From an uncultured Planctomycetota bacterium (GTDB taxonomy: Bacteria > Planctomycetota > JAJSAM01 > JAKLKS01): DNA of 64,000 nt. The position numbers and the translations under genes are program-made. Under the pieces are notes generated by a model, which had not been told where the DNA came from, did no database searches, and was given only the letters and a program-made list of their open reading frames with translations. Location of the stretch: the NCBI GenBank assembly GCA_964607145.1, contig CAZSIX010000003.1, forward strand, positions 74,039 through 138,038. The letters run 5' to 3'. How positions within the stretch are numbered: the stretch's first letter is position 1; each line of letters starts with the position of its first letter. This document shows, piece by piece, positions 12,661-59,121 of the stretch.

Positions 12661-12738
12661 TGGTCGGGGCGACTGGATTTGAACCAGCGACCTCCTGCAC
12701 CCCAAGCAGGCGCGCTAGCCAGGCTGCGCCACGCCCCG
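12661..12738 (-). tRNA. tRNA-Pro (anticodon GGG)
   Basis: Reverse complement folds as a cloverleaf: CGGGGCG/CGCCCCG acceptor stem, GTTCAAATCC T-loop, anticodon stem CCTGC with loop TTGGGGT giving anticodon GGG, and an encoded CCA end. Confidence 0.85.
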
Positions 12739-25674: not shown

Positions 25675-26142
25675 GGAGCGGAGACGGTACCGCGCCCCCG
25701 AAGAGCGGGGGAGGTTCGGCGAGGCGTACACGCGCGGTCGGGTGCCGGCCGAGTCCGGCGGGACACGGCGGCCGTGGAAGCGGAGCCTCGCGAAGAACGG
25801 GGGGGGCCTGCGCGTGCCCCCTTGGGGTAGACTCGGCTTCAGGGACGATCAGCAGTTCCCGGCACTCGAGGGAGGCCGCCGGGGGGAGGAGCGCGTGTGT
25901 GCCTCCAGCACCGCGGAAGAAGTAGCTGCGGCGGTGATGGCTGCGCCTTCGGACGACAACTACGGAGGGACGCGGATGCGACGGAGCGCGGCGTCGGACA
26001 CCAGGTTCGACCCACGACCGCCGGGCGCGTGCAAGAGTCCGCCCCATCCTCTCGTGCCGACTTGGATCTGGTGGGGCGGGGCACTCGTGCTGGCGGCCAC
26101 TCCGGGCCCTGGATCTTCGGCACTGCGAACGACAAGGTCTTC

Positions 26143-26463
26143 ATGTCGGCAGAGTTCGTCTGCATTGCAGGCGAAGTGGAGAATGCATGGCCGCCGGAGA
26201 GCAGCGTCATCGCGATCACGAGGTTGCAGCTTCCACGGTACGCCGGCAATGACCTCTCCGAGGAGAACGCTCGCTTCATCGCCGCGGCGCGGATGGGTGT
26301 GCCTCGGCTTTGCACGGAACTGGCACGCGCCCTCGAGAAACAGGCTGCGCTCGTGGATGCGATGCGACAGCTGCTGGCAGTGACGAAGGGCACTGAGGAG
26401 GCTGTCGAAACCGGCAAGGCCATCGAGCATGCGCAACGGCTAGTCGACGATCTCAAGCAGTGA
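26143..26463 (+). CDS. Small hypothetical protein (106 aa) in a low-GC islet; probably horizontally acquired
   Basis: The segment ~26110-26470 is about 60% GC against ~75% for its flanks. Its codons include AAT, GCA, CTT, GAA, AAA and CTA, which are atypical here. The protein is helical (..ARALEKQAALVDAMRQLLAVTKGTEEAVETGKAIEHAQRLVDDLKQ). The ORF stays open upstream to 25897, so the start could lie further upstream. Confidence 0.45.
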   Translation: MSAEFVCIAGEVENAWPPESSVIAITRLQLPRYAGNDLSEENARFIAAARMGVPRLCTELARALEKQAALVDAMRQLLAVTKGTEEAVETGKAIEHAQRLVDDLKQ

Positions 26464-26619
26464 GACTGATGTGCGAAGCGGTTCAGCCCGGGCCGGATGA
26501 GCCCGCCTGCCGGCCAGCGACGTGGCACGCGCGCCGGGACGGCTCCGCCGCGCCGCATGGACGGCCTCGCCGCGCCGCCGGAACCACACGCGCCGGCCCG
26601 CTCCCCCGGCGGCGAACCC

Positions 26620-28296: not shown

Positions 28297-28328
28297 GGAG
28301 GGTCCTCCTCGTGGGGTCGTGCGCGGGG

Positions 28329-38034: not shown

Positions 38035-38106
38035 TGGGGCGGCCAGGACTCGAACCTGGATCCAAGGGATTATGAGTCCCCTGCTCGACCGATTGAGCTA
38101 CCGCCC
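38035..38106 (-). tRNA. tRNA-Met (anticodon CAT; elongator Met or Ile2 type)
   Basis: Reverse complement GGGGCGGTAGCTCAATCGGTCGAGCAGGGGACTCATAATCCCTTGGATCCAGGTTCGAGTCCTGGCCGCCCCA. Acceptor stem GGGGCGG/CCGCCCC is perfect. Anticodon loop CTCATAA. G1-C72 are paired, so it is not an initiator tRNA. CCA is not encoded. Confidence 0.8.
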
Positions 38107-38200
38107 CGCGGGCGCCATTCTGCGGTCGGCGAGGCGGCCGCGTCGAGGGAACCCCGGCGCGCGCGTTGACTCCCGCGTCGCGGGATCGCATGATGCGGCC

Positions 38201-45068: not shown

Positions 45069-46328
45069 ATGGCCACGCCCGCGAAGGTCACGCTGGACGA
45101 CGTCCGCGCCGCCGCCGCCGCGCTGACGGACATCATCCGTCCGACCCGGCTCATCCCGTCCCATGCGCTGAGCGATCACCTGGGGCGGGAGGTGCTGCTG
45201 AAGCCGGAGAACTTCCAGCGCACCGGGTCCTTCAAGATCCGGGGCGCCTACAACCGCATGCGGCTCCTCTCGAAGGAGGCGCGCGGGCGCGGCGTCCTGG
45301 CGGCGTCCGCGGGCAACCACGCGCAGGGGGTGTCGCTGGCCGCCCAGTTCCTCGGCGTCCCCGCCACCATCTGCATGCCCGAGACGACGCCGGCCGTGAA
45401 GATCCAGCGGACGCGCATCTACGGCGCCGAGGTGGAACTCGTCCGGGGCGACTTCGAGGCGGCCACGGAGCGCTGCCGCGCGCTGGCGGAGGAGCGGGGC
45501 GCCGCCATCATCCCCACCTACGATGATCCGGCGGTCATCGCGGGCCAGGGCACCGTGGGCCTGGAGATCCTCGAGGAGTGCCCCGGCGCGGACCACATCT
45601 TCGTGCCCGTGGGCGGCGGCGGGCTGGCGGCGGGCATCGCCGTCGCCGCGCGCGCGCTGCGGCCCGGCGTGCGGGTGGTCGGCGTCCAGGCGGAGGGTTG
45701 CCCCTCGCTCCTGGAGGCGCTGCGCGGCGGGGAGCCGACGACGGTTCCCAAGTCCACGACCTTCGCCGAGGGCATCGCCGTGCGGCGCGTCGGGGAGGTG
45801 CCCTTCGCCCTCCTGAAGGAGCACCTCGCCGACGCCGTGGCCGTGAGCGACGACGCCATCGCCCGCGCCATGGTCGCGCTCATGGAGAAGTCGAAACTGG
45901 TCGTGGAGGCCGCCGGCGCCGTCGGCGCCGCGGCCCTGCTCTCCGGGGCGCGGGTGGACGGCAAGGGGCCCGTCGTGGTCGTCATCTCCGGCGGCAACGC
46001 CGACCTCAACGTGATCCAGCGCGTCATCGAGCGCGGCCTGATGGCGGAGGGCCGGTACGTCCGCATCACCGTGAAGATGCCGGACCGCCCGGGCAACCTC
46101 GCCCTCGTGCTCGCCGTGGTGGCGGCCCACGGCGGCAACGTGGTGGACGTGGACCACGACCGGGGCGGCTGGAGGGTCTCGCTGGGCGAGGTCAACGCGT
46201 CGCTGCTGGTGGAACTGAAGGAGGCCGGCGCCGGCGAGGAGATCCTCGCCGCGGTGCGCTCCGCGGGCTTCGACGCGACCCTGCTGGGCCGCGACGAGTA
46301 CGAGAAGCAGGCGCGCGGCGGGGGGTAG
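45069..46328 (+). CDS. ilvA: Threonine dehydratase / threonine ammonia-lyase (PLP-dependent, single C-terminal ACT-like domain)
   Basis: PLP-lysine motif TGSFKIRGA, plus GNHAQG and glycine-loop VGGGGLAAG. C-terminal regulatory domain present. 419 aa. Confidence 0.9.
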   Translation: MATPAKVTLDDVRAAAAALTDIIRPTRLIPSHALSDHLGREVLLKPENFQRTGSFKIRGAYNRMRLLSKEARGRGVLAASAGNHAQGVSLAAQFLGVPATICMPETTPAVKIQRTRIYGAEVELVRGDFEAATERCRALAEERGAAIIPTYDDPAVIAGQGTVGLEILEECPGADHIFVPVGGGGLAAGIAVAARALRPGVRVVGVQAEGCPSLLEALRGGEPTTVPKSTTFAEGIAVRRVGEVPFALLKEHLADAVAVSDDAIARAMVALMEKSKLVVEAAGAVGAAALLSGARVDGKGPVVVVISGGNADLNVIQRVIERGLMAEGRYVRITVKMPDRPGNLALVLAVVAAHGGNVVDVDHDRGGWRVSLGEVNASLLVELKEAGAGEEILAAVRSAGFDATLLGRDEYEKQARGGG

Positions 46329-46367: not shown

Positions 46368-48872
46368 CTACTCCTCGATCTGGCGCTTGCGGCGGACGAA
46401 GTTCGTGAGGAAGCGGAACGCCGACTGGTCGGTGACCTCCCGCTCCGCCTCCGCCTGCTTGGCGTAGACGCCGCGCTCGCGCAGGTCGCGGATCCTCTCG
46501 TAGGAGAAGCCGAAGTGGTCGGCGGAGAACGCCATGCGATCCTCCTCCGTCTTGATGCTCACGTTCTTCGCGTCCTTCAACTTGCTCAGGGTCTGGCGGT
46601 CGAAGTGGTTCGACGAGCCCATGACCACGCCGTGGCCCGACGTGAACCACGCCGCCAGGTTGCCGCCGCCGTTCCAGCGCGTCGCGCAGTCGGGGCTGTC
46701 CATGAGCACCTCGCAGCGCTCGGGGTCGAGCACCTCGATGAGGTAGGCGCCGTAGAGTTCGTACATGGGGCGGGAGACGTCGGGGAACACGCCGTCGAGG
46801 TACGTCGTCTCCGTGGGCATCTCCTCGGCGCGCACCTTGTCGAGGACCTGGCCCTTCGCCTTGGGGTACTTCCGGATGGTGTCCGGGAACTCCTTCCCGA
46901 TGGTCTCGTTGATGGCCCAGCAGGAACCGAAGAGCGCCCCGCCCACGTGCACGAACCACTGGATGCGGTCGTGGTCCTCCTTCTGCACCTCGCCGGTGCA
47001 GTTCGCCACGAAGACGCCGAAGGGCTGGAGGCCCGTCTCCACGACGCCCTTGGCGCGCGTCATCCGGTGGTTCACCTCCAGCGTCGTCAGCAGGTTCTCG
47101 ATGGAGTCGCCCCGGCTCTGGAGGACCACGACGTCGAGGTCCTCGTACACGTCCCGGTCGCGGAGGGCGTATCCGTACTTCTTGGCGTCCCGGATCTCCT
47201 TCTCCCGATCGATGATCTCGAAGGTCGCCTCCTCGGCGGCCCACCAGTCCTCCCAGGACTTCCGCCGCAGCGGGAGGTCCTTGCCCGCGAGCCGCTTCAG
47301 GAACTCCCACGCGGTGCGGGAGACGCACGGCTCCGCGTCCCCGACGGCCACCACGAGATGGGGGATGGCCTTGGCCGACTTGAGCCAGCCCAGCCCGGCC
47401 GCGGCGGCTCCCCGGTTCCGCCAGTCCTTGTGGCCCAGCGCGGCGACCAGCGCCGGGAGCCCCTTCTCGTCGCGGGTCTTCCCGAGGGAGACGGCGGCGC
47501 TGCACGCGACCTCCCAGGCGGTGTCCTTCTCCACCGCCGCCGCCAGCACCTCCGCGGCGCCGGGGACCTTGGGCACGCCCAGCCGGACGGCGGCCTCCTC
47601 GCGCACCACGGGGGACTCGTCGTACCGGAGGACCTTGGCGAAGAGCGCGAAGGCGTCGTCGGCGCGGGCGGTCTTCCAGCGGGAGTAGCCGCGGAGCGCG
47701 TGGAACCGGACCGACGGCGTCTTGTCGGCGATGCAGGTGCGGGCGAGGTGCTCCAGCGCCGCGTCCCCGCCCGCGCGACCGAGAGCGGCGGCGGCGGCGC
47801 GCCGCGCCTCGACCCCCGCGTGGGTCAGCCCCACCTCCGCCAGCGCCGCCACCACGCGGGAGGCGTCGCCGATGGGGCCCGCGCCCTCCTGGAGGGTGAC
47901 GACGGACGCGTTGGGGTTCTGCGGTGCGGCCGCGGGAGGCGGAGGGGCGGCGCCCGCCGCTTCCCCCGGCGCTCCCGGTTCCGGCGTCTCGGCGGGGGGC
48001 GGCAGGGGGAGGCCGCGGGCCACGGACCCCAGCACGCGGGCGAGTCGGGCGGAGGCGATGGAGTCCTTCTCGTTGCGGTACGCGCCCACGATGCGCTGCA
48101 CCGCCCGGTCGACGTCCTCGTTCTCCCGGTGGGTCCAGAGGATCCGTCGGATCGCCGCCGCGGCGCGGCGCTCCACGAGGTCCAGCAGGTCCTTCGACTG
48201 GAGGAGCGACACGAGGACCGGCAGGGCCTCCAGGGACCCCGTGCGCGCCATGCCCTCGACGGCCCCCGCCCGGGCCCCGATGTCCGGATCCTCGAAGAGC
48301 GTCTCCAGTTCCTTGAGGACCGACGGATCCCGGGTCGCCCCGGTGGCCGCCGCGGCCTCCCGGCGGACCACGCCCTCCTTGTTCCGGATGGCGGCGCGCA
48401 GCCCCTCCAGCGACGACGCGTGCCGGATCTCCGCCAGCGCCTCCGCCGCCAGCGCGGGGACCATGTCCTTGGCGCGCAACGCGGGGATGAGCATCTTCGC
48501 GCCCTCCTCGGGGGCGATGGCCCCGAGGGCGGCGGCGGCGGTCAGCCGGATGCGCCGGATGTCGCCGTTCACCGCCAGTTCCGCGAGGGGGCGGAGGGAG
48601 GCCTTGGGCGTGCCGCGGCGGGCCAGGCCGGCGCAGGCGGCCTGCACGACCTCCCAGTCCCGGTCCGCGGTGGCGAGCAGCAGGAACGCCTCCGCGCCCT
48701 CGCCCCCGTTGTTGGCCGCCTGGCGGACGGCGGCGAGGCGGTCCCTCACGTCGGCGCTCTTGAGGGCGGCGGGGTCGTACTCCTGGGCGCGCGCCGGCGG
48801 CGGGAGGAGGGCGCCCGCGGCCAGGAGCAGCGCGACGAGAGGGAGAGGCCTTCCGCGGGGGGGCTGGCTCAT
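46368..48872 (-). CDS. Secreted HEAT-repeat protein with C-terminal domain of unknown function (834 aa)
   Basis: Signal peptide MSQPPRGRPLPLVALLLAAGALLPPPARAQ (ATG 48872). Multiple HEAT-like helical pairs (DWEVVQAACAGLARRG, DPDIGARAGAVEGMARTG, SPVVREEAAVRLG, DWRNRGAAAAGLG). The C-terminal ~250 aa are more polar and resemble no known domain. The upstream part of the ORF to 49100 is excluded. Confidence 0.7.
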   Translation of the reverse strand: MSQPPRGRPLPLVALLLAAGALLPPPARAQEYDPAALKSADVRDRLAAVRQAANNGGEGAEAFLLLATADRDWEVVQAACAGLARRGTPKASLRPLAELAVNGDIRRIRLTAAAALGAIAPEEGAKMLIPALRAKDMVPALAAEALAEIRHASSLEGLRAAIRNKEGVVRREAAAATGATRDPSVLKELETLFEDPDIGARAGAVEGMARTGSLEALPVLVSLLQSKDLLDLVERRAAAAIRRILWTHRENEDVDRAVQRIVGAYRNEKDSIASARLARVLGSVARGLPLPPPAETPEPGAPGEAAGAAPPPPAAAPQNPNASVVTLQEGAGPIGDASRVVAALAEVGLTHAGVEARRAAAAALGRAGGDAALEHLARTCIADKTPSVRFHALRGYSRWKTARADDAFALFAKVLRYDESPVVREEAAVRLGVPKVPGAAEVLAAAVEKDTAWEVACSAAVSLGKTRDEKGLPALVAALGHKDWRNRGAAAAGLGWLKSAKAIPHLVVAVGDAEPCVSRTAWEFLKRLAGKDLPLRRKSWEDWWAAEEATFEIIDREKEIRDAKKYGYALRDRDVYEDLDVVVLQSRGDSIENLLTTLEVNHRMTRAKGVVETGLQPFGVFVANCTGEVQKEDHDRIQWFVHVGGALFGSCWAINETIGKEFPDTIRKYPKAKGQVLDKVRAEEMPTETTYLDGVFPDVSRPMYELYGAYLIEVLDPERCEVLMDSPDCATRWNGGGNLAAWFTSGHGVVMGSSNHFDRQTLSKLKDAKNVSIKTEEDRMAFSADHFGFSYERIRDLRERGVYAKQAEAEREVTDQSAFRFLTNFVRRKRQIEE

Positions 48873-49111
48873 GGACCCATTCTGCGGCCCCCCGGGGGCG
48901 GCGGCAAGGCGGTTCGCCCGCGCCGCCCGGCGACCCGTTCCCCCGCGCGGACCCCCGGACGTCGAAGGAGGGGTGGGCGGTGCGGCCCGCAATGGGACGG
49001 GGAGCGGTTGCATGAGGCGGGATCCCCGCCTAGGATTGGACGGTCGCCGGGGCGCCCACGACGCGCCCGCGGTCGCCGGTCCGCCGCAACGCCGGAACAC
49101 GAGGAGAACCG

Positions 49112-51340
49112 ATGGACGCGAACTCCCTCCGCCGCACCCCTTCCCTCGCCCTGCTCCTGCTGGCGGGCGCGCTCCTGGCGTCGGCGCCCGCGCGGGCCGA
49201 CGAACTGGGCATCCCCACGGGCGGGCTCGACTCGGTCCTCCTGACCGATGGGCGGGTCGTCCGCTGCGTCGTCGGGGAGGCCTCCAAGGACGGCAAGACG
49301 GTCCTCCAGTTCCCCAGCGCGTCGTTCCCCGTGGAGACCGCGCGCATCGAGACCGTGCGCCGTTTCGCGGATTACGACCCCGAGCCCCGCAACGACGAGG
49401 AGAAGGCCCGCGTCGAGAAGGGGCTCATCCGGTGGGACGGGCGGTGGATCCCGAAGGAGAAGGCGCTGGCCGCGCAGAAGAAGCAGGCGGAGGAGGACGC
49501 GAAGCAGCGGCTCGACGACGACGCCCACGGGACGTGGGAGACGCGTCGCAAGGTCGAGACCGAGCACTTCGTGTTCGAGGCGGACATCCCGAAGGCCCAG
49601 CTCGACTACTACTCGGGCCTCATGGAGGCCTACTACGCGGCGTTCACGAAGTACTTCAAGATCACCCTCACCCAGCGGGAGAAGAAGCAGAAGCTCCCCG
49701 TGTTCCTGTTCCGCAAGCGCGACGACTTCCGGGTCTATCACGACCGGGACACGAGCGGGAAGAGCGAGCACCTCCTCGGGTACTTCATGCCCGCCATCGG
49801 GCAGGAGAGGCTCGTCTTCTTCGACCTCCCCGGGAACCGGGACGACACCGTGGCGGTCATGTTCCACGAGGCGACGCACTTCCTCATCCACCTCGCGGAG
49901 CCCAAGGTGCTCACGTCGCGCTGGATCCACGAGGGCGTCGCGGAGTACATCGGCAGCAGCGTGTACACGGGGAAGACCTTCCGGATCGGGGGCACGCAGG
50001 ACGGCCGCCTCCTCCACTTCCAGGAGATGATCCGGAAGGGGAAGGTCATCCCCATGGACAACTTCATGCAGGCGGGGAACCCGTCCGTGGAGGGCCGCGG
50101 GATCGAGTTCTCCGGCGAGCACTACGCGCAGACGACGATGCTCGTCCACTTCCTCATGGAGGGGAAGAACCAGAAGTACCGCAACGCCTTCATCTCCTAC
50201 TTCACGCGGTGCCTGTCCGGGAAGGGCGTCAAGTACACGGCCATCGCGGGCTCCGACCAGAAGTTCATCGAGTACGAGGAGGGCAAGGCGCTCCTGCTGC
50301 GGACGCTGGGGCTCAAGGACTTCGAGCCCCTCATGAAGGAACTCGAGGAGTACGCCATGGCGCTGCCGCTCGGGGACGCCACGGCGTACGTGACGCGCGG
50401 GGAGATCTCCTACTTCAACCGCCGCGACCAGGAGGCCGCCTTCGCCGACTGGGACGAGGCCGAGCGGCGCGGAGTCGACAACGCGAAGGTCCTGGCGGAA
50501 CTCGGTCGCGTCTACACCCACATCGGAGAGCGCGCCGACCGCGTCGTCCCCTTGCTCCAGCGGGCCGTCGAGCTGGATCCGCTGGCCGTCAAGTACCGCT
50601 ACTGGCTGAGCACCCGGCTGCCCGAGGAGGAGTCGCTCCTGCAGTTGCGCATCTGCGTGGAGATCGAGCCCACGTATGCCGACGCGCTCTCCGCGCTGGG
50701 CCTCCGGACGTTCATCGCCCTGCGCGATCGGGACAAGGTGGGGGAGGACGAGAGGCCGCGCGTCGACGAGGCGCTGGCCATGCTGGCAAAGGCCATCGCC
50801 ACGGATCCCAAGGCCGAGACCTACTTCGCGCAGGCGTCGCTGTACCTGCTCATCGGCGAGTTCGAGAAGGCGCGGGAGGCCGCCAAGGCGGCCACGGAGA
50901 TGGCGCCCGAGGACGAGGGATACCTGTGGCGTCTCGCCCAGTGCTACGCGCTCCTCGGCAGCGCCGAGGACTTCGGCAAGATCCTGCGGCGCATCGAACT
51001 CCTCCTCCGGCGCGGCGCGCAGGTCAGGTCCGGTGAGACGGCCGCCGGCGCGCGCCAGGGCATGAGCCCCGAGGACGCCGCGGCGCTGATGGCGACCCTC
51101 GTGCGCCGGATGGCGGAGCGCTGCCTGACGTGGGACAAGTCGAAGGAGGCGCTCATGGCGCTGGGGGCGTGGTACGCCCGCCGGCCGCCGCAGAACGAGG
51201 ACGACTGGGTGTTCTGGACCACCGTGGCCTCCATGGCCGGGGACGACGCGGGGGCGCGCAAGATCGCCGGCGACGGGCTGGCCGCGTGTCCCGAGTCCGC
51301 CCTCCTCAAGCAGTACGCCGCCGCCGGGTCGGGGGAATAG
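49112..51340 (+). CDS. Secreted DUF1570-type zincin-like (HExxH) protein with C-terminal TPR repeats
   Basis: Signal peptide present. Motif AVMFHEATHFLIH is characteristic of DUF1570 / peptidase MA-like proteins. TPR-like helices in the C-terminal half. RBS GAGGAGAAC before the ATG. Confidence 0.75.
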   Translation: MDANSLRRTPSLALLLLAGALLASAPARADELGIPTGGLDSVLLTDGRVVRCVVGEASKDGKTVLQFPSASFPVETARIETVRRFADYDPEPRNDEEKARVEKGLIRWDGRWIPKEKALAAQKKQAEEDAKQRLDDDAHGTWETRRKVETEHFVFEADIPKAQLDYYSGLMEAYYAAFTKYFKITLTQREKKQKLPVFLFRKRDDFRVYHDRDTSGKSEHLLGYFMPAIGQERLVFFDLPGNRDDTVAVMFHEATHFLIHLAEPKVLTSRWIHEGVAEYIGSSVYTGKTFRIGGTQDGRLLHFQEMIRKGKVIPMDNFMQAGNPSVEGRGIEFSGEHYAQTTMLVHFLMEGKNQKYRNAFISYFTRCLSGKGVKYTAIAGSDQKFIEYEEGKALLLRTLGLKDFEPLMKELEEYAMALPLGDATAYVTRGEISYFNRRDQEAAFADWDEAERRGVDNAKVLAELGRVYTHIGERADRVVPLLQRAVELDPLAVKYRYWLSTRLPEEESLLQLRICVEIEPTYADALSALGLRTFIALRDRDKVGEDERPRVDEALAMLAKAIATDPKAETYFAQASLYLLIGEFEKAREAAKAATEMAPEDEGYLWRLAQCYALLGSAEDFGKILRRIELLLRRGAQVRSGETAAGARQGMSPEDAAALMATLVRRMAERCLTWDKSKEALMALGAWYARRPPQNEDDWVFWTTVASMAGDDAGARKIAGDGLAACPESALLKQYAAAGSGE

Positions 51341-51344
51341 GACC

Positions 51345-53489
51345 GTGGACCTGCACAGAGCCGCGACTCGCCTGCTCCCGCTGGCCCTCCTCGGGCTCGC
51401 CTCCGCCTCCGCGGCGCTCGCCGCCGACGTCAAGGACCCGGGCTACGACGCCGCCCTCCGGGAGGCCAAGAAGTCCATCCGGAGCCTCCCCGAGAAGGTC
51501 CGCCAGCCCATGGCGAAGGAGGGGCAGAACTTCCTCGATCAGCACCAGAAGGCGGACCGCTACACGGAGGCGCAGAAGGACATCCAGGCCCGCGTCGCCG
51601 CACTGGACGCGCTGGCGGCGCTGAAGGACACGCGCGTCTTCGAGGAGATGACGAAGTTCCTCCCCGGGCTGAACAAGGAGGTCGAGCGGACGCGGGTCGA
51701 ACTGGACGAGTCCACGGAGAAGTACGAGAAGGTGCGCCTTCCCTACTTCGAGGCCCGCGAGGAGGAGTTCCGCCGCACGGGCGCCTGGCCGACGACGATC
51801 CTCGTGAATCTCGGCAAGACGCTGGACACGCTGGAGTGGGACCAGACGGAGTGCGCCATCGCCTACGACCGCGCGCTCCGGCTCCGGGACGCCGCCACCG
51901 CCGGGCTGGGCGTCAACCTCGCCTCCCTGGGCGAGGCCCGCGACCTCGTCTGGAAGGCGGCGGTCAAGTTCGGCCTCGAGAGCAAGGACCCGTGGGATCG
52001 CGTGGCGTTCTGCGAGGCGACGAAGGCCATGGCGGGGAAGGAGGCGGACGCGATCCTCCTCCAGATGGAGGCCAAGGACTCGGATCCGAACGTCGTCGCC
52101 GCGGCCATCGGCGCCCTGGCGGCCCGCCGCTCCGAGGCCGGTTTCCCGAAGATCGTCGCCCGCGTGGCCAGCCCCGATGACCGCATCGCCATCGCCGCCA
52201 TCAAGGGGATCACCGGGTACCGCTCCCCGGACACCATCCCGACCCTCGTCGCGCGGCTGAAGTCGGCGGAGGGTCGCATCCTGGAGGACATCGTCGAGGC
52301 GCTGTTCGGCCTGACGGGCAAGCACCTCCCCGACGCCCACTCCGCGTGGGAGGGGTGGTGGAAGGAGAACGGGCGGACGTTCCTCCGCCGCTGGGACGCG
52401 GACGTGCAGGTGCGGAAGGACGAGATCGAGGCCATCGGCCTCACGGACGGTCGCCTCATCGACGTCCCCGCGGAACTGGCGGCGCTCCTCCCCACGGAGT
52501 CCGACCAGGGCTGCCGCGACGCCATCCTGGAGAACCTCTCCATCCACAAGTCGGACTTCGCCCGCCGCACGCTGATCGCCAGTCTCGCGGACCCCGCTCT
52601 GCCCACCCGCATCGCCGCCATCCGCGGGCTCGCGCAGTACCGCCACATCAGCGTTCCCGAGGAACTGATCCGCCGCGTCCCCCTGGCCGGGAAGGAGGAA
52701 CTCCAGGCCATCTACCAGACTCTGCGCCTTCTCTGGACGGCGGAGGAGTTCGCCTGCCGCGCCGCGGAGCGCGAGCCGCTGCTCCAGTGGTGGACCTCGG
52801 TGAATTCCCGCGTCGCCGAGCAGTTCCAGAAACTCGGCGAGCGCGCCAAGGACATCGCCTCCGGCAAGCAGCAGGAGGGGGAACTGGACGCGCAGTGGCG
52901 CGACCGGAACTTCTACGGCCTCCGCATCCTCTCGAACCGCGTGCTGTTCGTCGTCGACGTGTCCCTGTCCATGGAGGAGCCGGCGCAGAAGGGCTCGGCG
53001 CTGGCCGACGAGGTGGCGTCCAAGCGCACGAAGCTCGAGGTGGCGAAGTCGGAGATGACCCGCGTCATCCGGACGCTGCCCGACGACACGCTGTTCGGGA
53101 TGGTCTTCTTCTCCGTGACGGAGCAGGTGTGGGACGACGGCATGGTCCTGATGAACTCGGCGAACCGCAAGAAGGCGCTCAAGTGGGTCGAGGACCTCAA
53201 GCCCAAGGAGGCGACGAACATCTACGACGCCCTCGAGACGGCCTTCGAGATCGGGACCCCGAAGTCCCCGGTCCGCGCGGCGGGGGCGCCGGACACCATC
53301 TACTTCCTGTCGGACGGCGCGCCCACGGCGGGCAAGTACCTGAAGCCGGACATCATCCGGGAGCACGTGCGCCGCTGGAACAAGACGCGCGGCGTGAAGC
53401 TGCACGTCGTCGGCGTCGGCGCGGACCACGACATCCTGTTCTGCCGGTCGCTGGCCGAGGAGAACGGCGGGTACTACGTCGCCCGGTAG
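51345..53489 (+). CDS. Secreted HEAT-repeat protein with C-terminal von Willebrand factor A (vWA) domain
   Basis: GTG start 5 nt after the previous stop. Signal peptide LLPLALLGLASASAALA. vWA MIDAS-like motif VLFVVDVSLSMEE ... TNIYDAL ... IYFLSDGAPT. Confidence 0.7.
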   Translation: MDLHRAATRLLPLALLGLASASAALAADVKDPGYDAALREAKKSIRSLPEKVRQPMAKEGQNFLDQHQKADRYTEAQKDIQARVAALDALAALKDTRVFEEMTKFLPGLNKEVERTRVELDESTEKYEKVRLPYFEAREEEFRRTGAWPTTILVNLGKTLDTLEWDQTECAIAYDRALRLRDAATAGLGVNLASLGEARDLVWKAAVKFGLESKDPWDRVAFCEATKAMAGKEADAILLQMEAKDSDPNVVAAAIGALAARRSEAGFPKIVARVASPDDRIAIAAIKGITGYRSPDTIPTLVARLKSAEGRILEDIVEALFGLTGKHLPDAHSAWEGWWKENGRTFLRRWDADVQVRKDEIEAIGLTDGRLIDVPAELAALLPTESDQGCRDAILENLSIHKSDFARRTLIASLADPALPTRIAAIRGLAQYRHISVPEELIRRVPLAGKEELQAIYQTLRLLWTAEEFACRAAEREPLLQWWTSVNSRVAEQFQKLGERAKDIASGKQQEGELDAQWRDRNFYGLRILSNRVLFVVDVSLSMEEPAQKGSALADEVASKRTKLEVAKSEMTRVIRTLPDDTLFGMVFFSVTEQVWDDGMVLMNSANRKKALKWVEDLKPKEATNIYDALETAFEIGTPKSPVRAAGAPDTIYFLSDGAPTAGKYLKPDIIREHVRRWNKTRGVKLHVVGVGADHDILFCRSLAEENGGYYVAR

Positions 53490-53562
53490 GGCGATCGCCC
53501 ACCCGGCCGGCGGGTATGATCCGGCGGCCCGGATCCGGGGGGGCCCGGCGGGAGGCGAGGAG

Positions 53563-54762
53563 ATGTCCATGGGGCAGCGGCGGGGCCGGTCGCGCACGTG
53601 CCGTGGATCCGCCGGCGCCGTCGCCATCGCCCTCGCGGTGGCGCTGCTGTCGGCCCCCGACGGTGGGGCCGTCGCGCAGGACGGCGGCCCCGCGGGCGTC
53701 CAGCCGCAGGCCTTCTTCAAGGGCAAGGTCCTGTCGATGAAGGGGCGGCGGATCGAACTGTCCTACGACTTCCAGGACCCGGCGCAGATCGCCGACTGGA
53801 CCCACACGCATCCCTTCCTCACGCCCCCCACGACGGGGGGCTGGCGCGTGGAGGGCGGGGCCCTCCGCGGCGAGGGCTCCTGCGCCGCCCGCCATCGCGC
53901 CGTGTTCGACGGCGACGTCGCGGTGGAGGCCACCATCTCCAGCGAGAAGGCCAGGGACTTCGGAGCCGTGGTGATCTCCGAGGAGGGGACCACCTTCACC
54001 CTCTTCTCCCTGAACGACGCCTACTTCTCCTTCAAGGACGGGCGCCTCCCCAACGAGCACATGGTCACGACGTTCCTTCCCGCGGGCACGGGTCCCGGCG
54101 GCACGACGTTCTGGCGCTACGTCCAGACCGTCTACGAGCCGCGCGTGGGCGCCGACCCGGTGAAGATCTCGCTCCGGAAGAAGGGGGCGAACAACGAGTT
54201 CCGGTTCGCCGGCACCGGGCGGCTCGGCGGCGATGACGTCGAGGCCCGCGTGGGGCCCGCGTTCTTCCCCGCGTTCTACGTCATCGAGTCGCGCGCCGTC
54301 GTCAAGGACGTGAAGGTCTCCGGCATCCTCTCCACGGCCTGGCTCCGCCAGAACGGGATCGCCTTCGAGGACACCGTGCCCGAGGGACCGAAGCCCGGAG
54401 ATCCCCCTCCCGCTGCCGGCGGCCCCCCGTCGCGCGTGGAGGACGCCCCCTGGCGGGCGCTCGCCGCCGTCGTGGCCAATGGATCGCTCTCCCGCGAGGA
54501 GCGCGAGAAGGCGGCGAAGGATCTCATCGCCACGAAGGAGAAGCGTGCCGTCCGCGCCATGATCGACATCCTCTACAACGAGGCCGACGAGGACGGACGC
54601 GAGATCGCCTACGGCGTCTTCAAGGGCATCTCGGGGAAGGACGCCGGGTACCGGCCGACGGGCGACGCCGAGGCGCGGCAGAAGTCCATGGAGAACGTCT
54701 GGAAGGTGTGGCTCGCCCTGCGCACCGCCGCCGAGCGCGAGGAAGCGAAGCAGGGGAAATGA
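53563..54762 (+). CDS. Secreted protein with DUF1080/LamG-like domain and C-terminal HEAT-like segment
   Basis: Signal peptide AVAIALAVALLSAPDGGAVAQ. RBS GGAGGCGAGGAG. The central region resembles concanavalin-like DUF1080 (GKVLSMKGRRIELSYDF...W...GGW..EGGALRG). This is an inference. Confidence 0.6.
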   Translation: MSMGQRRGRSRTCRGSAGAVAIALAVALLSAPDGGAVAQDGGPAGVQPQAFFKGKVLSMKGRRIELSYDFQDPAQIADWTHTHPFLTPPTTGGWRVEGGALRGEGSCAARHRAVFDGDVAVEATISSEKARDFGAVVISEEGTTFTLFSLNDAYFSFKDGRLPNEHMVTTFLPAGTGPGGTTFWRYVQTVYEPRVGADPVKISLRKKGANNEFRFAGTGRLGGDDVEARVGPAFFPAFYVIESRAVVKDVKVSGILSTAWLRQNGIAFEDTVPEGPKPGDPPPAAGGPPSRVEDAPWRALAAVVANGSLSREEREKAAKDLIATKEKRAVRAMIDILYNEADEDGREIAYGVFKGISGKDAGYRPTGDAEARQKSMENVWKVWLALRTAAEREEAKQGK

Positions 54763-54788
54763 TCCGGGTCCGCCCCGGGGAGGTCGCC

Positions 54789-55364
54789 ATGTCCCGTCCC
54801 GTCCCGTACGTCCGCCGCGGGCTCGCTCTCGCGGCCCTCCTCGCCGCCGCCGCCCTCGCCCCCTCGCCCCGTGCCGGGGCCCAGGACGCCGACACGCCGC
54901 TGGATCGCTCCCTCCAGAAGGTCGAGGCGCTGCTCACCTCCCTCAAGGCCTCCGGCGGCGCCGACCCCGCCCTGGTCCGGCAACTGGAGGCCATCGCCAA
55001 GGACCTCCGGGAGGCGAAGGCCGCCGCCGGTGCGGCGACTCCTCCCCCCGCCGGTGGCGGGCCCGGCGCGGGCGCCGGTGCCGGCGCCGGTGCCGCCGCG
55101 GGGGCGAGCCGCTGGCTGATCGACCGCGTGATGGAGGGCGTCGAACTCAACGAGAAGGACCGCAAGGTGGCCGAGGACCTGCTGACGGTGTTCGGCGAGG
55201 ACTACGCCCTCGCCCGCCTCCACAAGGATGATCGGTCGAAGCAGGTCCTCAAGTCCGACGTCGAGGATCGGATCGACAGGGCGCTTCCCCGGCGCGAAGC
55301 CGGCAAGATCAAGAACAACCTCGCCACCCAGTTGCGCTGGATGGAGTGGGGGGGGCGGAGGTAG
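54789..55364 (+). CDS. Small secreted hypothetical protein (191 aa) with low-complexity GAGAGAGA linker
   Basis: RBS GGGAGG before the ATG. Signal peptide LALAALLAAAALAPSPRAGAQ. The helical C-terminal part looks protein-like. Confidence 0.55.
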   Translation: MSRPVPYVRRGLALAALLAAAALAPSPRAGAQDADTPLDRSLQKVEALLTSLKASGGADPALVRQLEAIAKDLREAKAAAGAATPPPAGGGPGAGAGAGAGAAAGASRWLIDRVMEGVELNEKDRKVAEDLLTVFGEDYALARLHKDDRSKQVLKSDVEDRIDRALPRREAGKIKNNLATQLRWMEWGGRR

Positions 55365-55602: not shown

Positions 55603-58600
55603 ATGCGCCGAACCACCGCCGCCGCGCTCGTGACCGCCGTCCACGCCGCCGTGCTCGCCGGGGCCCTGGCGGGGGGCGGTCTCGACCACCGGCTCATGCC
55701 GGGGCAGACCGCCACGGGCAGCATCGGCGAGACCGGGGAGGAGGATCTCCTGCTCCTCCAGACCTTCCCCGGGCAGAAGATCACGGTGCAGATCAAGGCG
55801 CGGTCCGGCGAGTCGCTGCTCCCGGAGTTGACGTCGCTGCTGAACCCCGCGGAGCAGGACGTCCTCGGCTCCGCCATCGTGAAGACGTCGAAGAAGGGCG
55901 ACGTCGTGACGCTCAAGTCCCTCGTCTCCCCGTCGGGAGGGACCTGGGTCCTCGGACTCGGGGGGGACGGCGGCACCACGGGGACCTACGACATCAAGAG
56001 CAAGGGGTCCCCGTCCAACGCCCGCCTCGGCGCGGGCGACGTGGCGTCCCCCGGCGCCGAAGTCCCCCTCGAGTTCGCCGCCGAGGCGGGGTCCGACGTG
56101 GCCATCCAGGTGAAGGCGGACCAGGGTCAGTCGCTGCGTCCCCTGGTGGCGCGCATCGAGGGGCCGCAGGGGACGGTGAACCTCGGCTCCGCGGCGCGGA
56201 AGACCTCCGCGAAGAAGGACTCGCTGAAGGGAGTCCGCCTCGCGGACAACGGGACCTACACGGTGTTCGTCACCGGCGACGAGGGCACGACGGGAACCTT
56301 CACCGCCCTCATCAAGGTGGGGAAGACGGTCCCCCTGGACTTCTCCGTGGATCCCACCGGCGATCCGCCGCCCCCGGGTCCCCCCGCGGTCACGGCCGTG
56401 AACCCCGGCGAGTACGACGCGCCGTCGACGGGCAACTCCATGACCGTGACCGGCCTGCGCTTCGTGAGCGGGGCGCAGGTGTCGTTCACGCCGGCCACGG
56501 GGATCACCGGCCTCTCGACCTCGTTCAACTCCGCCACGAGCCTCACGGCGACCTTCGACGTCGCGGGGGACGCCACCCCGGGCCTCCGCTCGGTGACCGT
56601 CACCAACCCCGACACGCAGACCGGCACGAAGGCGAACGCGTTCAGCGTCGTCGCGGGTCCGACGGGCGTCGAACTGAACGCCGTCACTCCGTCCTCCGGT
56701 CCCGGCGCCGGGGGGACGCGCGTGCTCCTCCAGGGGGAACTGTTCGGCAACGTGACGGAGGTGCTCTTCGGGACCGAGCCGGCGCAGGCCATCCTGCGCG
56801 TGGACGCGGAGAACATCCTCTGCACGGTGCCGCCCGCGGCCGCGGTCTCCGCCACCGGCGCGTCCTCCGTGGACGTGTCCGTGGAGGTGGACGGCAACGA
56901 GACCGCCACCCTCGTCGGCGGCTGGACCTACGACGCGGACCCGAGCCCTCCGAAGGTGGCCGCCCAGGTCCCGGCGCTCAACTCGACGGGCGCGCCGCGC
57001 AACCTCCAGAAGGTGGTGCTGTTCCTCGACGAGCGGCCCGACCCGGCGTCCGTGGTCACGGGCAACTTCCTCTTCTTCCGGTCCAGCGTGTCGGGCCCCA
57101 ACGACATCATCAACCCGTCGGTGACCGGCGTGGCCGTGGGCGCCGGCGGACGATGCATCGTCGTCCAGCGCGGCGGGGCGACGGGGGGCACCCTTTCCGC
57201 CACCAGCACCTACGTGACCCAGATCTCCAACGGCGTCACCGACGTCGCGGGCAACCCCCTCGACCCGACCCCCTTCGGCGGGAGCGTGTTCCAGGGGAGT
57301 TTCGCGACGGGCGCGGGCACCGACGCGACGGCGCCGACGGTGGTGTCCACGACCCCCGGCGCGTCGGCCGTGGGTGTGGACATGGACGGGACCGTCTCGA
57401 TCCTGTTCTCCGAGGCCATCGACCCGTCGCTGCTCGCCGGGGCGTTCTCCCTCAAGCAGGGGCCCACCAACATCCCCGGGGACCTGGACGTCGACCAGAC
57501 GCTGACCACCGCCACGTTCACGCCACGGTTCCGCCTGGCACCGTCGACGACGTACACCATCGGGATCGCCACCACCCTCCGGGACCTGAGCGCGAACGCG
57601 CTCGCGACGGCGCTCTCGAGGACGTTCACCACGGCCGCCGCCGACGGGACCGCTCCGACGGCCGTCCTCACGGTGGACGTCCTCCCGCAGGACATGAACG
57701 GGTCGGGGACCTACGTCAACTCCGGAGGCACCGGGGGCAACGCGTTCGACGCCTACCTCCCGCGCAGCGGCTTCACCATCGACCTCGAGTTCACCGATGC
57801 GGGGGGCAGCGCCGTGGACGCGTCCTCGCTCACCGTCACGTGCGACCGCGCCATGGGGAGCGTGTCCGGAGGCGCCGAACTGGCGGGGTTCTTCACCGCG
57901 ACGCCGCTCGGCGGGACCTGGACCGTGCCGGCGGCCAACGCGCTGGCCGTCAACAGCAACGTCACCTTCACCGCCCGCGTCTCCGACAACGCCGGCAACC
58001 AGTCCCCGCAGGTGACGCTCGTGGTGGACGTGGCCGACATCACGAAGAGCACCTCCGGCGGCAGCGCGAACGCCTCCACGGATCGCGATCCCTTCAACGT
58101 GCGCCAGGTCTGGCTGCTGCGGTTCGATCAGGACATCTACGCCACCTCCTCCACGGGCAGTTCCACCATCACCGTGAACTCGAGTCTCCCCGGCGGAGGG
58201 AACGGCACGCTCGACCTGCGCGAGGACCTGGCGCTCGTCGGCCTCAACGGGACGGAGTCGGGGACCGGGGCGGCCTCCGTGACGAACGGGTCGAGCACGG
58301 GCACCAACGCCATCGTGCAGCGCATCTTCCGGGAGTCCGTGCGCGGGTACCTGAACCTGCGCTACGGGATCGCCTTCGACGGCACGCGGAGCGCCGACAG
58401 CGTGGACGTCGAGTTCCTCCTGGCCGGCGAGCAGGGATCCCTCTCCGCGGTGCCCGACCCGGCGACGTGGAACTCGGGCAGGGGGTACTCGATGCTCTCG
58501 TGCACCGGGGACGAGAGCCCCAACTCCTCGAACACGGCCATCGGGCGCGCGAACTTCGACCTGCGCAACACGCAGCAGGACGACGACAGCAACACGGGCG

Positions 58601-59121
58601 TGGGCGGCGGGAACAACCTGGGCGCGTTCCTGACCCACATGATCCGCAAGCGGATCAACGACTCCACGGGGACCCTGTTCCGGGACGTCTTCGATCCGCT
58701 CATCCCCGCGCGGAGCGGCACGGCGGTCGGCGCGTCCAACCTCGACGCCACGGTGCTGTCGGGGTCGTTCAACTACGCCACGGCCACGCAGCCGCAGAAG
58801 GACCGCTTCGACCTCATCATGACCGCCATCGATCACATGGCGCTGTACCTGTCCTTCGTCGCCGCGCACGAGGTCGGCCACTCGGTCGGACTCGTCGCCG
58901 ACGGCGCGCCGCCGGCGGGGCTGTTCGGCGGATCGCACGAGGGCAACACGTTCATCACCGACGGCGGCTTCACCACGTCGGGCCACATCGACACGCCGGG
59001 GAACAACCTCATGGAGGCGGCCTCCCCGTTCTCGGAGGCCGTGGCGCAGGGGTCCGCGTTCGCCCGGTTCGGTCCCATGAACGCGGCATGGCTGCTCAGG
59101 AGGTTCGTGTATGACCAGTGA
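55603..59121 (+). CDS. Giant secreted protein 2 (1172 aa), paralog of giant protein 1: N-terminal PPC-like domains, Ig-like domains, C-terminal HExxHxxG zincin-like domain
   Basis: RBS GGAGGGG before ATG 55603. Signal peptide AAALVTAVHAAVLAGALA. Two PPC-like segments (EEDLLLLQTFPGQKITVQIKA; SDVAIQVKADQGQSL). C-terminal VAAHEVGHSVGLVADGAPPAGLFGG aligns with giant 1; both also share (FN)VRQ.W.LR.D.D.Y and GAEGNAFTTG / GTNAIVQR blocks. Confidence 0.85.
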   Translation: MRRTTAAALVTAVHAAVLAGALAGGGLDHRLMPGQTATGSIGETGEEDLLLLQTFPGQKITVQIKARSGESLLPELTSLLNPAEQDVLGSAIVKTSKKGDVVTLKSLVSPSGGTWVLGLGGDGGTTGTYDIKSKGSPSNARLGAGDVASPGAEVPLEFAAEAGSDVAIQVKADQGQSLRPLVARIEGPQGTVNLGSAARKTSAKKDSLKGVRLADNGTYTVFVTGDEGTTGTFTALIKVGKTVPLDFSVDPTGDPPPPGPPAVTAVNPGEYDAPSTGNSMTVTGLRFVSGAQVSFTPATGITGLSTSFNSATSLTATFDVAGDATPGLRSVTVTNPDTQTGTKANAFSVVAGPTGVELNAVTPSSGPGAGGTRVLLQGELFGNVTEVLFGTEPAQAILRVDAENILCTVPPAAAVSATGASSVDVSVEVDGNETATLVGGWTYDADPSPPKVAAQVPALNSTGAPRNLQKVVLFLDERPDPASVVTGNFLFFRSSVSGPNDIINPSVTGVAVGAGGRCIVVQRGGATGGTLSATSTYVTQISNGVTDVAGNPLDPTPFGGSVFQGSFATGAGTDATAPTVVSTTPGASAVGVDMDGTVSILFSEAIDPSLLAGAFSLKQGPTNIPGDLDVDQTLTTATFTPRFRLAPSTTYTIGIATTLRDLSANALATALSRTFTTAAADGTAPTAVLTVDVLPQDMNGSGTYVNSGGTGGNAFDAYLPRSGFTIDLEFTDAGGSAVDASSLTVTCDRAMGSVSGGAELAGFFTATPLGGTWTVPAANALAVNSNVTFTARVSDNAGNQSPQVTLVVDVADITKSTSGGSANASTDRDPFNVRQVWLLRFDQDIYATSSTGSSTITVNSSLPGGGNGTLDLREDLALVGLNGTESGTGAASVTNGSSTGTNAIVQRIFRESVRGYLNLRYGIAFDGTRSADSVDVEFLLAGEQGSLSAVPDPATWNSGRGYSMLSCTGDESPNSSNTAIGRANFDLRNTQQDDDSNTGVGGGNNLGAFLTHMIRKRINDSTGTLFRDVFDPLIPARSGTAVGASNLDATVLSGSFNYATATQPQKDRFDLIMTAIDHMALYLSFVAAHEVGHSVGLVADGAPPAGLFGGSHEGNTFITDGGFTTSGHIDTPGNNLMEAASPFSEAVAQGSAFARFGPMNAAWLLRRFVYDQ

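Follow-up and report, generated by a model that had tools for sequence, protein, structure and literature searches.

The five consecutive genes at positions 46,368–55,364 of the 64-kb window (the whole stretch of DNA analysed, from a 74% GC Planctomycetota MAG lineage) are best read, with moderate confidence, as a conserved syntenic segment of a deep, as yet uncultured Planctomycetota lineage, with three separately inherited modules of predicted Sec-exported proteins lying next to each other (Table 1). Module 1 is a pair of genes for a DUF1570/TPR protein and a HEAT-vWA protein, module 2 is the divergently oriented gene for an 834-aa HEAT protein (HEAT834), and module 3 consists of the genes for a 399-aa and a 191-aa protein, which open a cassette that extends further downstream.

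Table 1 Features of the five-gene block and its surroundings, in window coordinates
Feature	Position	Strand	Description
ilvA	45,069–46,328		Just upstream of the block; TIGR01127, 429 bits (cutoff 379)
HEAT834, 834 aa	46,368–48,872	−	HEAT protein; Pfam HEAT_2 (E = 2e-37), six stretches
HEAT834 C-terminal domain, 283 aa (residues 552–834)	46,371–47,219	−	Class-I glutamine-amidotransferase-like (GATase1-like) fold
DUF1570/TPR protein, 742 aa	49,112–51,340	+	Gluzincin-like metallopeptidase candidate; Pfam TPR and DUF1570; leader
HEATH motif of the DUF1570/TPR protein	49,865–49,879	+	
E274 codon of the DUF1570/TPR protein	49,931–49,933	+	
HEAT-vWA protein, 714 aa	51,345–53,489	+	Pfam VWA_3/VWA_2/VWA and HEAT_2; leader
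vWA domain of the HEAT-vWA protein	52,941–53,480		C-terminal
DVSLS of the vWA domain	52,956–52,970		Forms a complete MIDAS motif with T624 and D657
399-aa protein	53,563–54,762	+	Leader; β-sandwich; Pro-rich linker; helical tail
β-sandwich of the 399-aa protein	53,695–54,357	+	Concanavalin-like (predicted)
Tail of the 399-aa protein	54,448–54,756	+	Five helices
191-aa protein	54,789–55,364	+	Leader; charged, helix-prone; Gly/Ala/Pro linker; GC3 0.91
Ig-like giant, 1172 aa	55,603–59,121	+	Pfam TIG, Big_5; C-terminal HEVGH domain; cassette gene 3
HEAT protein, 382 aa	59,111–60,259	+	Predicted exported; HEAT_2 (E = 3e-10); cassette gene 4

All five gene models are real by codon bias, with coding-type GC3 of 0.91–0.97 and GC2 of 0.43–0.54 in the proposed frames, and their lengths match those of a first-pass annotation, which had also named ilvA, borne out by its profile score, as the only housekeeping gene there. 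Pfam identified four HEAT_2-positive proteins in the window, all within 43.8–60.3 kb, so that the concentration of HEAT proteins noted in that annotation is genuine but modest. Most of its domain calls likewise agreed with Pfam profile searches, except those for the 399-aa and 191-aa proteins, neither of which had a Pfam or NCBIfam hit even at E ≤ 10. As it had stated, the HEAT proteins cannot be assigned to a characterised family, none reaching any such NCBIfam cutoff. A phycobilin lyase (CpcE, CpcF) or NblB identity in particular is not supported, the equivalog scores of 62.7, 39.5, and 24.1 bits being far under the respective cutoffs of 300, 330, and 220.

Leader sequences were assessed with a hydropathy and AxA heuristic, rather than a dedicated signal-peptide predictor, using ilvA as a control. 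By this heuristic, each of the five proteins has a positive N-terminus followed by a 12-residue hydrophobic core (Kyte-Doolittle 2.1–2.8) and a small-x-small cleavage site at around residues 24–38, with no lipobox Cys or further transmembrane segment in any of them, and ilvA shows none of the leader features. This Sec-type pattern, found in 5/5 proteins, agrees with the signal peptides proposed from the first reading, and the hydrophobic N-termini are retained in alignments of orthologues. We infer that all five proteins are Sec-exported and reside in the periplasm or at the cell surface.

The first-pass annotation had further suggested that the block forms one functional locus, perhaps an extracellular protease with scaffold and adhesion partners, a reading that can be extended to the flanking cassettes. 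From the DUF1570/TPR gene to the 382-aa HEAT gene, all genes are co-directional, with intergenic gaps of 4, 73, 26, 238, and −11 nt, and may thus be co-transcribed in the window, where a scan for promoters and terminators gave nothing informative. A single protease machine would also fit the leaders on all products (by the heuristic), the clustering of 4/4 HEAT_2 proteins, the overall gene order retained in a related lineage (L001), and the presence in L015 and L016 of a 399-aa paralogue and more HEAT/TPR proteins upstream of the pair. However, the block as a whole is split in relatives and its parts have unrelated neighbours, while the pair is kept. The order in L001 is HEAT834 (minus strand), the pair, an MgtC-like gene and a Na/sulfate symporter gene (both minus strand), two PPK2 genes, and the genes for the 399-aa protein, the 191-aa protein, and the Ig-like giant, so that module 3 is cut off from the pair by PPK2 genes and by transporter genes of the opposite strand. 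In L019, HEAT834 (minus strand) is followed by two PPK2 genes and the 399-aa, 191-aa, Ig-like giant, and HEAT genes, with no DUF1570/HEAT-vWA pair in the interval that leads from the HEAT834 orthologue to the cassette. Moreover, the pair is set among housekeeping genes in five further lineages (including L003, L013, L014, and L016), with flanks as varied as BipA/LGT, ThuA/SelA, and M24 peptidase/sigma-70/DnaG, and relatives of HEAT834 are found without any of the other genes. Because L001 separates modules 1 and 3 and L019 lacks module 1, only part of the one-locus proposal stands, namely a zincin candidate adjoining a HEAT/vWA protein in a conserved pair, but not the unity of the five genes, and we regard a single machine of this extent as quite improbable. 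Still, HEAT834 and the 399-aa cassette are neighbours across three lineages at ~50% identity, with the pair present in two of the three, which together with the paralogue in L015 and L016 may reflect some looser functional coupling between modules.

Within this three-module reading, the DUF1570/TPR and HEAT-vWA genes are a conserved two-gene unit. The former is directly followed by the latter in eight lineages (the window, L001, L003, L004, L013, L014/L015, L016, and L022), with orthologues 35–58% identical at the amino-acid level. The partnering is restricted to this identity group; in L006, a DUF1570 gene with 31% identity is followed by an unrelated gene. In the window, the HEAT-vWA gene starts with a GTG at the fifth base past the upstream TAG, i.e., after a 4-nt gap and exactly where it had been placed before; the gap is 1 nt in L013, and stop and start overlap by 4 nt in L001, L003, L014, L015, and L016. 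The two genes are probably translationally coupled.

Both proteins of the pair combine a helical repeat region with a domain whose functional residues are strictly conserved. The DUF1570/TPR protein comprises a leader, a β-rich N-terminal region, a catalytic region, and a C-terminal TPR superhelix (~residues 400–740), to which its PDB sequence matches are confined. Its DUF1570 (PF07607) score of 21.0 bits (E = 4.5e-4) falls 1 bit short of the cutoff of 22, and the profile is matched by 16/16 family members (best E = 3.5e-9). Residues H252, E253, H256, W271, E274, G275, A277, E278, and Y279 are invariant in an alignment of 16 orthologues, and the invariance of every zinc ligand and of the catalytic Glu holds at 40–55% overall identity, which suggests a zincin-type protease candidate with an intact, active-looking catalytic motif. 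No characterised DUF1570 protein was found in the literature searched, in which the name itself is hardly mentioned. In the HEAT-vWA protein, a leader and a helical and HEAT region precede the vWA domain, which is detected by three Pfam profiles above cutoff (VWA_3, 46 bits; VWA_2, 36 bits; VWA, 35 bits) and whose MIDAS residues D538, S540, S542, T624, and D657 are invariant in an alignment of six orthologues. A role as a periplasmic or surface protease-adaptor would be the most likely function of the pair. Module 1 (49,112–53,489) would then be a two-gene operon in which a gluzincin-TPR protein is co-translated with its HEAT-vWA partner, and the two proteins may form a complex outside the cytoplasm, with the MIDAS capturing a protein or polymer ligand by an acidic group, the two solenoids (TPR and HEAT) holding a partner or substrate, and the zincin cleaving it.

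An alternative reading makes module 1 a variant of a stress system of the Bat (Bacteroides aerotolerance) or vWA-MoxR type, where a MoxR AAA+ ATPase works together with vWA and TPR proteins. GATase1-like domains are frequent neighbours of Bat/vWA-MoxR systems. The side-by-side vWA and TPR genes are also arranged as in bat operons, whose products act outside the cytoplasm (PMC3557215, PMC5700661). Yet neither the window nor the surroundings of the pair in L001, L003, L013, L014, and L016 contain a MoxR ATPase or DUF58 gene. By the heuristic, the leader of the vWA protein is of the cleavable type and there is no membrane anchor, and the zincin domain of the TPR protein has no counterpart in Bat proteins. 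A Bat-type system is very improbable.

Module 2, the HEAT834 gene, is separated by a 239-bp spacer from the divergently transcribed DUF1570 gene and has orthologues at the same position in L001 and L019, with remoter family members in unrelated contexts. The protein comprises a ~29-residue leader, HEAT_2/PBS-type repeats over ~residues 40–540, and a C-terminal domain for which there is no Pfam match even at E ≤ 10, weak DUF4350 matches being limited to two distant homologues (E = 4e-4 and 3.5e-3, under cutoff). We are confident that this domain has a GATase1-like fold; its structural neighbours include the GH42 middle domain, IFT52, and OST48/WBP1. Conserved pocket residues of HEAT834 are C625, C651 (Asp in distant homologues), and H756, and in domain numbering a polar pocket of D38, C74, S175, H205, and Q209 is kept across >140 representatives. 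C100, located between strand 95–99 and helix 102–110, is Asp in 37/38 distant homologues, and no invariant Glu follows the conserved H205 in the alignments. The domain family spans 735 clusters at 50% identity, ~100 of which are exported HEAT fusions, while others stand alone or are joined to Ser/Thr kinase or FHA modules. Module 2 would be an independent gene that joins a HEAT solenoid to a previously unclassified GATase1-like domain with a Cys/Cys(Asp)/His/Asp/Ser pocket, the latter likely being a small-molecule- or peptide-binding or hydrolytic module.

The conservation seen in modules 1 and 2 also bears on a more conservative explanation, in which the block has no shared or enzymatic function, its genes encode lineage-typical exported repeat proteins linked solely by descent, and neither the DUF1570 nor the GATase1-like domain is more than a degenerate binding module. 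Planctomycetota encode many exported HEAT, TPR, and DUF15xx proteins, no family here reaches a functional annotation in Pfam or NCBIfam, GATase1-like folds are often non-catalytic oligomerisation domains (including the three structural neighbours above), and distant homologues have Asp in place of the nucleophile-elbow Cys. Degenerate modules are, however, at odds with the invariant zinc ligands and catalytic Glu of the DUF1570 protein, the five of five invariant MIDAS residues, the stop/start junction of the pair maintained in eight lineages, and the pocket conserved in >140 GATase1-like representatives, and we consider this explanation fairly unlikely.

For module 3, domain assignments came from structure rather than sequence profiles. 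None of the 24 members of the 399-aa family has a Pfam domain, but an AF2 model of the window protein (pLDDT 85) was matched by Foldseek to GH16 laminarinase, a galectin-like Bacillus subtilis protein (1oq1), CBM66, and L-type lectins, at E-values from 2.6e-7 (best) to ~1e-5, every match being a ConA-like lectin or glucanase. As modelled, the protein therefore contains a concanavalin-like β-sandwich, and the GH16 ExDxxE motif is absent from both its sequence and the family alignment. The label of DUF1080/LamG-like in the first-pass annotation is thus retained at the fold level (Foldseek E ~1e-7) but not at the profile level, and Bacteroidales putative glycosyl-hydrolase structures, which we take to be DUF1080 members, rank 22nd and 49th among the Foldseek matches, not first. 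The HEAT label given to the tail has no statistical support (hhalign probability ~1%). L015 and L016 carry, 5–6 kb upstream of the pair, a paralogue that shares 28% identity with the 399-aa protein. Orthologues of the 191-aa protein, 184 and 186 aa long and 38–42% identical, occupy the same position in L001 and L019. Next in the window is the Ig-like giant, which is 39% identical to the giant of the upstream cassette over 852 aa and 48% identical to its L019 orthologue over 1162 aa, with only subthreshold matches to metzincin profiles. Its stop is overlapped by 11 nt by the start of the 382-aa HEAT gene, whose product aligns with both its L019 orthologue and the HEAT protein of the upstream cassette. 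L019 keeps this order of four genes, as does L001 as far as the Ig-like gene, within which its locus ends, so that the 399-aa and 191-aa genes, previously taken as part of a block between two cassettes, are instead the first two genes of the downstream cassette. Module 3 (53,563–55,364, continuing to 60,259) would provide the front half of a four-gene cassette for lectin-fold, small charged, Ig-like/HExxH giant, and HEAT proteins, and the upstream cassette (~38.2–45.0 kb) would be a two-gene paralogue of its back half.

Taken together, one "grey" block of unplaceable exported HEAT/TPR/DUF proteins is resolved into three testable units. We tentatively propose, as a possibility short of an even chance, that the DUF1570-TPR protein and its obligatory HEAT-vWA partner are an undescribed two-component exported protease-adaptor system, and that the C-terminal domain of HEAT834 founds an unrecognised, fairly large family with a GATase1-like fold. 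With its invariant zincin and MIDAS motifs, the pair represents a minimal two-gene system and could give a first functional handle on DUF1570. The fold of the GATase1-like family, which is missing from Pfam, is confidently assigned, and its conserved pocket is defined (Cys, Asp, Ser, His, Gln). This pocket is unlike the classical triad and would therefore point to a hydrolase, transferase, or ligand sensor of a new kind in the planctomycete envelope. For the repeated Ig-like/HExxH cassettes, the boundary is corrected to a four-gene unit that includes the 399-aa and 191-aa genes. These results do not overturn current ideas, and the value of this modestly interesting locus lies in annotation and hypothesis generation.

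Several known systems resemble parts of the block. PBS-lyase HEAT-like proteins (CpcE, CpcF, NblB) have the same repeat type (HEAT_2, HEAT_PBS), whereas the proteins studied here score 24–63 bits against cutoffs of 200–330, come from a non-cyanobacterial host, and are predicted to be exported. The β-sandwich fold of the 399-aa protein is common to the ConA-like superfamily (GH16, L-type lectins, CBM66, DUF1080, LamG), but the sequence of the protein matches none of DUF1080, LamG, and GH16, and the ExDxxE motif of the last is missing. Compared to the class-I GATase-like superfamily (Pdx2, HisH, MetA, ThuA, GATase1_like/STM3548, DUF4350), the HEAT834 domain matches no Pfam family, has an elbow Cys that is Asp in distant members and a different universally conserved Cys (C74), and is predicted to be exported in fusion with a 500-residue HEAT solenoid. 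Bat operons similarly encode vWA (MIDAS) and TPR proteins together (PMC3557215, PMC5700661), but here MoxR, DUF58, and a membrane anchor are lacking, a zincin and HEAT repeats are added, and there are two genes only. The DUF1570/TPR protein has in common with DUF1570/M1/Peptidase_MA_2 gluzincins an HExxH motif followed 17–18 residues on by a Glu in a W-x-x-E-G-x-A-x-Y context, and with M1 peptidases a long α-helical repeat domain after the catalytic part, although this domain consists of TPRs rather than ERAP1_C/ARM repeats and the motif spacing is x17, not x18. Finally, CLCA proteins, which are secreted zincin-vWA proteins, also have an exported HExxH metalloprotease working with a MIDAS-containing vWA domain, but they carry both in one self-cleaving polypeptide, whereas here they are divided between two polypeptides with TPR and HEAT solenoids.

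GC content is uniformly 70–80% across the window, and long spurious ORFs therefore occur in all frames. Genes were called by codon-position GC (GC3 >0.9 and GC2 near 0.5 required), and coordinates and codon bias agree for all five genes that the first-pass annotation had placed between two cassettes; the presence of ilvA in their surroundings was likewise confirmed (see table). The genes of the block are real, and the domain reading offered for them is mostly correct: HEAT_2, TPR, vWA and a borderline DUF1570 were recovered with Pfam, while the 399-aa and 191-aa proteins had no Pfam or NCBIfam match, even at E ≤ 10. The proposed signal peptides also stand at the level of a heuristic (not a dedicated predictor), which found, in 5/5 proteins, a leader that starts with basic residues, continues into a hydrophobic core ~12 residues long and carries AxA-type sites. 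These leader features are retained among orthologues and absent from ilvA, used as a control, and the same heuristic detected no lipobox or further transmembrane segment in the five proteins. Homologues of the block proteins are almost confined to metagenomes and Planctomycetota-labelled MAGs. A promoter and terminator scan, uninformative in DNA of 74% GC, returned no promoters and two terminator-like sites vs. four expected. Elsewhere in the window, ~2.5 kb at 25850–28330 contains no ORF passing the codon-bias filter and no Rfam match.

Genes of the block and other features of the window
Feature	Position	Strand	Remarks
Ser/Thr kinase ORF, ~1700 aa	3797-8902	+	
tRNA-Pro (GGG)	12661-12738	-	further upstream than tRNA-Met
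S8 subtilase, 1640 aa	15926-20854	+	with NPCBM-associated domain
Spermine-synthase-like/TPR protein, 1130 aa	22462-25848	-	
tRNA-Met (CAT)	38035-38107	-	between FAD/old-yellow-enzyme-type oxidoreductase gene and first Ig-like giant
Ig-like (TIG/Big_5) exported giant, first	38240-43828	+	paralogue of second giant, 39% identical over last 852 aa
ilvA	45069-46328		just upstream of block; TIGR01127 above cutoff
834-aa protein (HEAT834)	46368-48872	-	HEAT_2, E=2e-37 (Pfam)
742-aa protein	49112-51340	+	TPR and borderline DUF1570 (Pfam)
714-aa protein	51345-53489	+	HEAT_2 and three vWA models (Pfam)
399-aa protein	53563-54762	+	no Pfam/NCBIfam match
191-aa protein	54789-55364	+	no Pfam/NCBIfam match
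Ig-like (TIG/Big_5) exported giant, second	55603-59121	+	paralogue of first giant

The first-pass annotation had further proposed that the five genes form one functional locus, a question that we judged on three related lineages, namely the window and the loci L001 and L019. In the window, the minus-strand HEAT834 gene is followed by the 742-aa DUF1570/TPR and 714-aa HEAT–vWA genes (hereafter the pair) and then by the downstream cassette. L001 shares HEAT834 (minus strand) and the pair, followed by MgtC-like and Na/sulfate symporter genes, both on the minus strand, two PPK2 genes and the cassette. In L019, minus-strand HEAT834, two PPK2 genes and the cassette follow one another and the pair is absent. 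These gene orders thus represent inherited synteny with insertions and deletions, in which the pair can be missing and opposite-strand genes can intervene. With the pair missing at this site in one lineage and opposite-strand genes interposed between modules in another, a single functional locus uniting all five genes and the cassettes is improbable, and the block instead splits into three modules: the pair, HEAT834, and the 399-aa and 191-aa genes. For the block taken as one unit, this is the outcome that the first-pass annotation had itself named as refuting its proposal. The single-locus reading nevertheless retains a small probability because of a residual link in loci L015 and L016, where, 5–6 kb upstream of the pair, a paralogue of the 399-aa protein (28% identity) is encoded within a co-directional HEAT/TPR run. 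This run, from another lineage (L016, 2162–14460; L015, 1200–12647), also encodes 505-aa HEAT, 121-aa, 597-aa TPR and 405-aa weakly HEAT-like proteins and an M24 peptidase, and is terminated by the pair. The PPK2 (polyphosphate kinase 2) gene pair lies directly upstream of the four-gene cassette (L001, 4809–9641; L019, 1197–2939), accompanied in L001 by the MgtC-like and symporter genes; none of these genes occurs at this site in the window.

A search among 5.8 billion proteins retrieved 15 close relatives of the 742-aa protein (40–53% identity), all full-length or nearly so. All 16 sequences matched DUF1570, and H252, E253, H256 and W271-x-x-E274-G-x-A-E-Y are invariant across the alignment. 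They make up the gluzincin signature, in which the zinc ligands would be the two His and the Glu downstream of them, and the other Glu would be catalytic. M1-type peptidases are known for the same WxxEGxAxY context. TPRs make up the C-terminal 340 residues, and TPR chains were the sole matches when the profile of this protein was searched against PDB sequences. The 714-aa gene begins with GTG, 4 nt beyond the TAG of the 742-aa gene, and a HEAT–vWA orthologue adjoins every DUF1570/TPR orthologue with enough flanking sequence (L001, L003, L004, L013, L014/L015, L016 and L022). In these relatives, the stop of the first gene and the start of the second are separated by 1 nt or overlap by 4 nt. All five MIDAS residues are kept in the vWA domain, and the genes around the pair are wholly different among lineages (BipA and LGT; ThuA and selenocysteine genes; M24 peptidase, sigma-70 and primase). 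Of the mere five loci that a metagenome scan starting from the vWA protein yielded, two had been recovered before. We also looked for a vWA partner of more distant DUF1570 genes: the one in L006 (31% identity) has an unrelated neighbour, the downstream gene lacking both a Pfam domain and similarity to the HEAT–vWA family, and the partnership with vWA is therefore specific to this orthologous group. We infer that the pair encodes a putative exported protease–adaptor complex, translationally coupled, with both interaction and activity predicted. The C-terminus of the DUF1570 protein (51280–51340) and those of its aligned orthologues are variable, low-complexity tails rich in Gly, Glu, Asp and Pro; we speculate that a MIDAS site could bind a flexible, acidic tail of this sort. 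A large S8 subtilase, of which the window has one too, is encoded near the pair in L013.

In the window and L001, HEAT834 and the DUF1570 gene are divergently oriented, as are HEAT834 and the PPK2 genes in L019; relatives of HEAT834 in L017, L018 and L020 lie in unrelated contexts. The last 283 residues of HEAT834 matched no Pfam family, yet they form a well-defined sequence family, and an AlphaFold2 model built from the family alignment was confident (pLDDT 87.8, pTM 0.84). When 1.84 billion cluster representatives were searched with the family profile, 735 members were identified (112 at E ≤ 1e-30), of which ~100 share the HEAT834 architecture (750–840 aa, domain C-terminal); distant members are 260–500 aa long and leaderless. 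Conserved across all members are, in domain numbering, D38, N73-C74-x-G76, G93-G94, [ST]99-x-W101, S175, G197, H205 and Q209. At the “elbow”, close members have Cys (C100) where distant ones have Asp, and the distant homologues keep C74 and H205 despite this replacement. In the full-length protein, D38, C74, C100, S175 and H205 correspond to D589, C625, C651, S726 and H756. The conserved residues would form a polar pocket different from the textbook Cys-His-Glu triad, so catalysis by the domain is possible. A PDB sequence search with the domain returned nothing significant. Equivalence with ThuA, encoded upstream of the pair in L013, was considered and rejected: both folds are GATase1-like but the window domain has no ThuA profile match, and the two are not orthologous. 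Among distant homologues, the domain also occurs in stand-alone leaderless proteins of 260–310 aa, fused to a Ser/Thr kinase (P0219), or fused to an FHA domain and two transmembrane segments (P0215).

The flanking cassettes (~38.2–45.0 kb and 55.6–60.3 kb) are paralogous pairs: in each, a giant TIG/Big_5 Ig-like protein with an HExxH domain at its C-terminus precedes an exported HEAT protein; the upstream one is a two-gene paralogue located after the tRNA-Met gene. Both giants end in an “AHE[IV]GHS[TV]GLVADGAP...GLFG” domain, conserved too in the L019 orthologue. These HExxH domains gave subthreshold metzincin profile matches alone (Matrixin, DUF4953, Reprolysin; E 0.03–0.7), and nothing significant was obtained in a PDB sequence search with the giant's C-terminus. 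In L019, a 407-aa orthologue of the 399-aa protein, a 186-aa orthologue of the 191-aa protein, a 1170-aa TIG/Big_5 protein and a 392-aa HEAT protein are encoded in succession, overlapping or with gaps of 2 to 106 nt, and L001 shows the same order as far as the retrieved locus reaches, ending inside the TIG/Big_5 gene. The true repeating unit on the downstream side is therefore a four-gene cassette, to which the 399-aa and 191-aa genes belong. No Pfam domain was found in any of 24 relatives of the 399-aa protein, and a PDB sequence search was without significant result. Its model (pLDDT 85) comprises a β-sandwich (residues 45–265), a disordered Pro-rich linker and a five-helix tail, and Foldseek matched it exclusively to concanavalin-like lectins and glucanases (GH16 laminarinase, a galectin-like Bacillus protein, CBM66 and L-type lectins). 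The GH16 catalytic motif is absent from this protein, so the modelled fold more likely serves a binding role. Three of the five proteins show, beyond their helical repeats, a “[ST/A]GK” segment followed after 8–20 residues by “W-x-x-[WV]-W” (47220–47300, minus; 52310–52400 and 54640–54720, plus). At this segment, HEAT834 and the HEAT–vWA protein are 35% identical over 103 aa (BLAST E=5e-8), whereas the similarity of the 399-aa protein is not significant. We discarded, as evidence for a HEAT module, the resemblance of the 399-aa tail to this cap: hhalign did align the segment anticipated, but at E=0.057 and a probability of ~1%; the tail did not match the vWA protein family, and the HEAT–vWA protein was the only carrier of a strict regular expression for the motif.

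The conserved protease–vWA operon and the unclassified GATase1-like domain family of HEAT834 are both new, as variants of known protein kinds. The HEAT proteins of the block score far below the cutoffs for the cyanobacterial lyases CpcE, CpcF and NblB, in keeping with the earlier view that these exoproteins cannot be assigned to a characterised family, and DUF1570 is itself an uncharacterised family, which one paper in the literature searched mentions in passing. In joining vWA with TPR outside the cytoplasm, the pair is similar to Bat/MoxR-type systems (PMC3557215, PMC5700661), from which it differs by having no MoxR, no DUF58 and no membrane anchors, and by its additional zincin. CLCA proteins couple a zincin to a MIDAS vWA domain, a coupling that the pair shares but distributes over two polypeptides.
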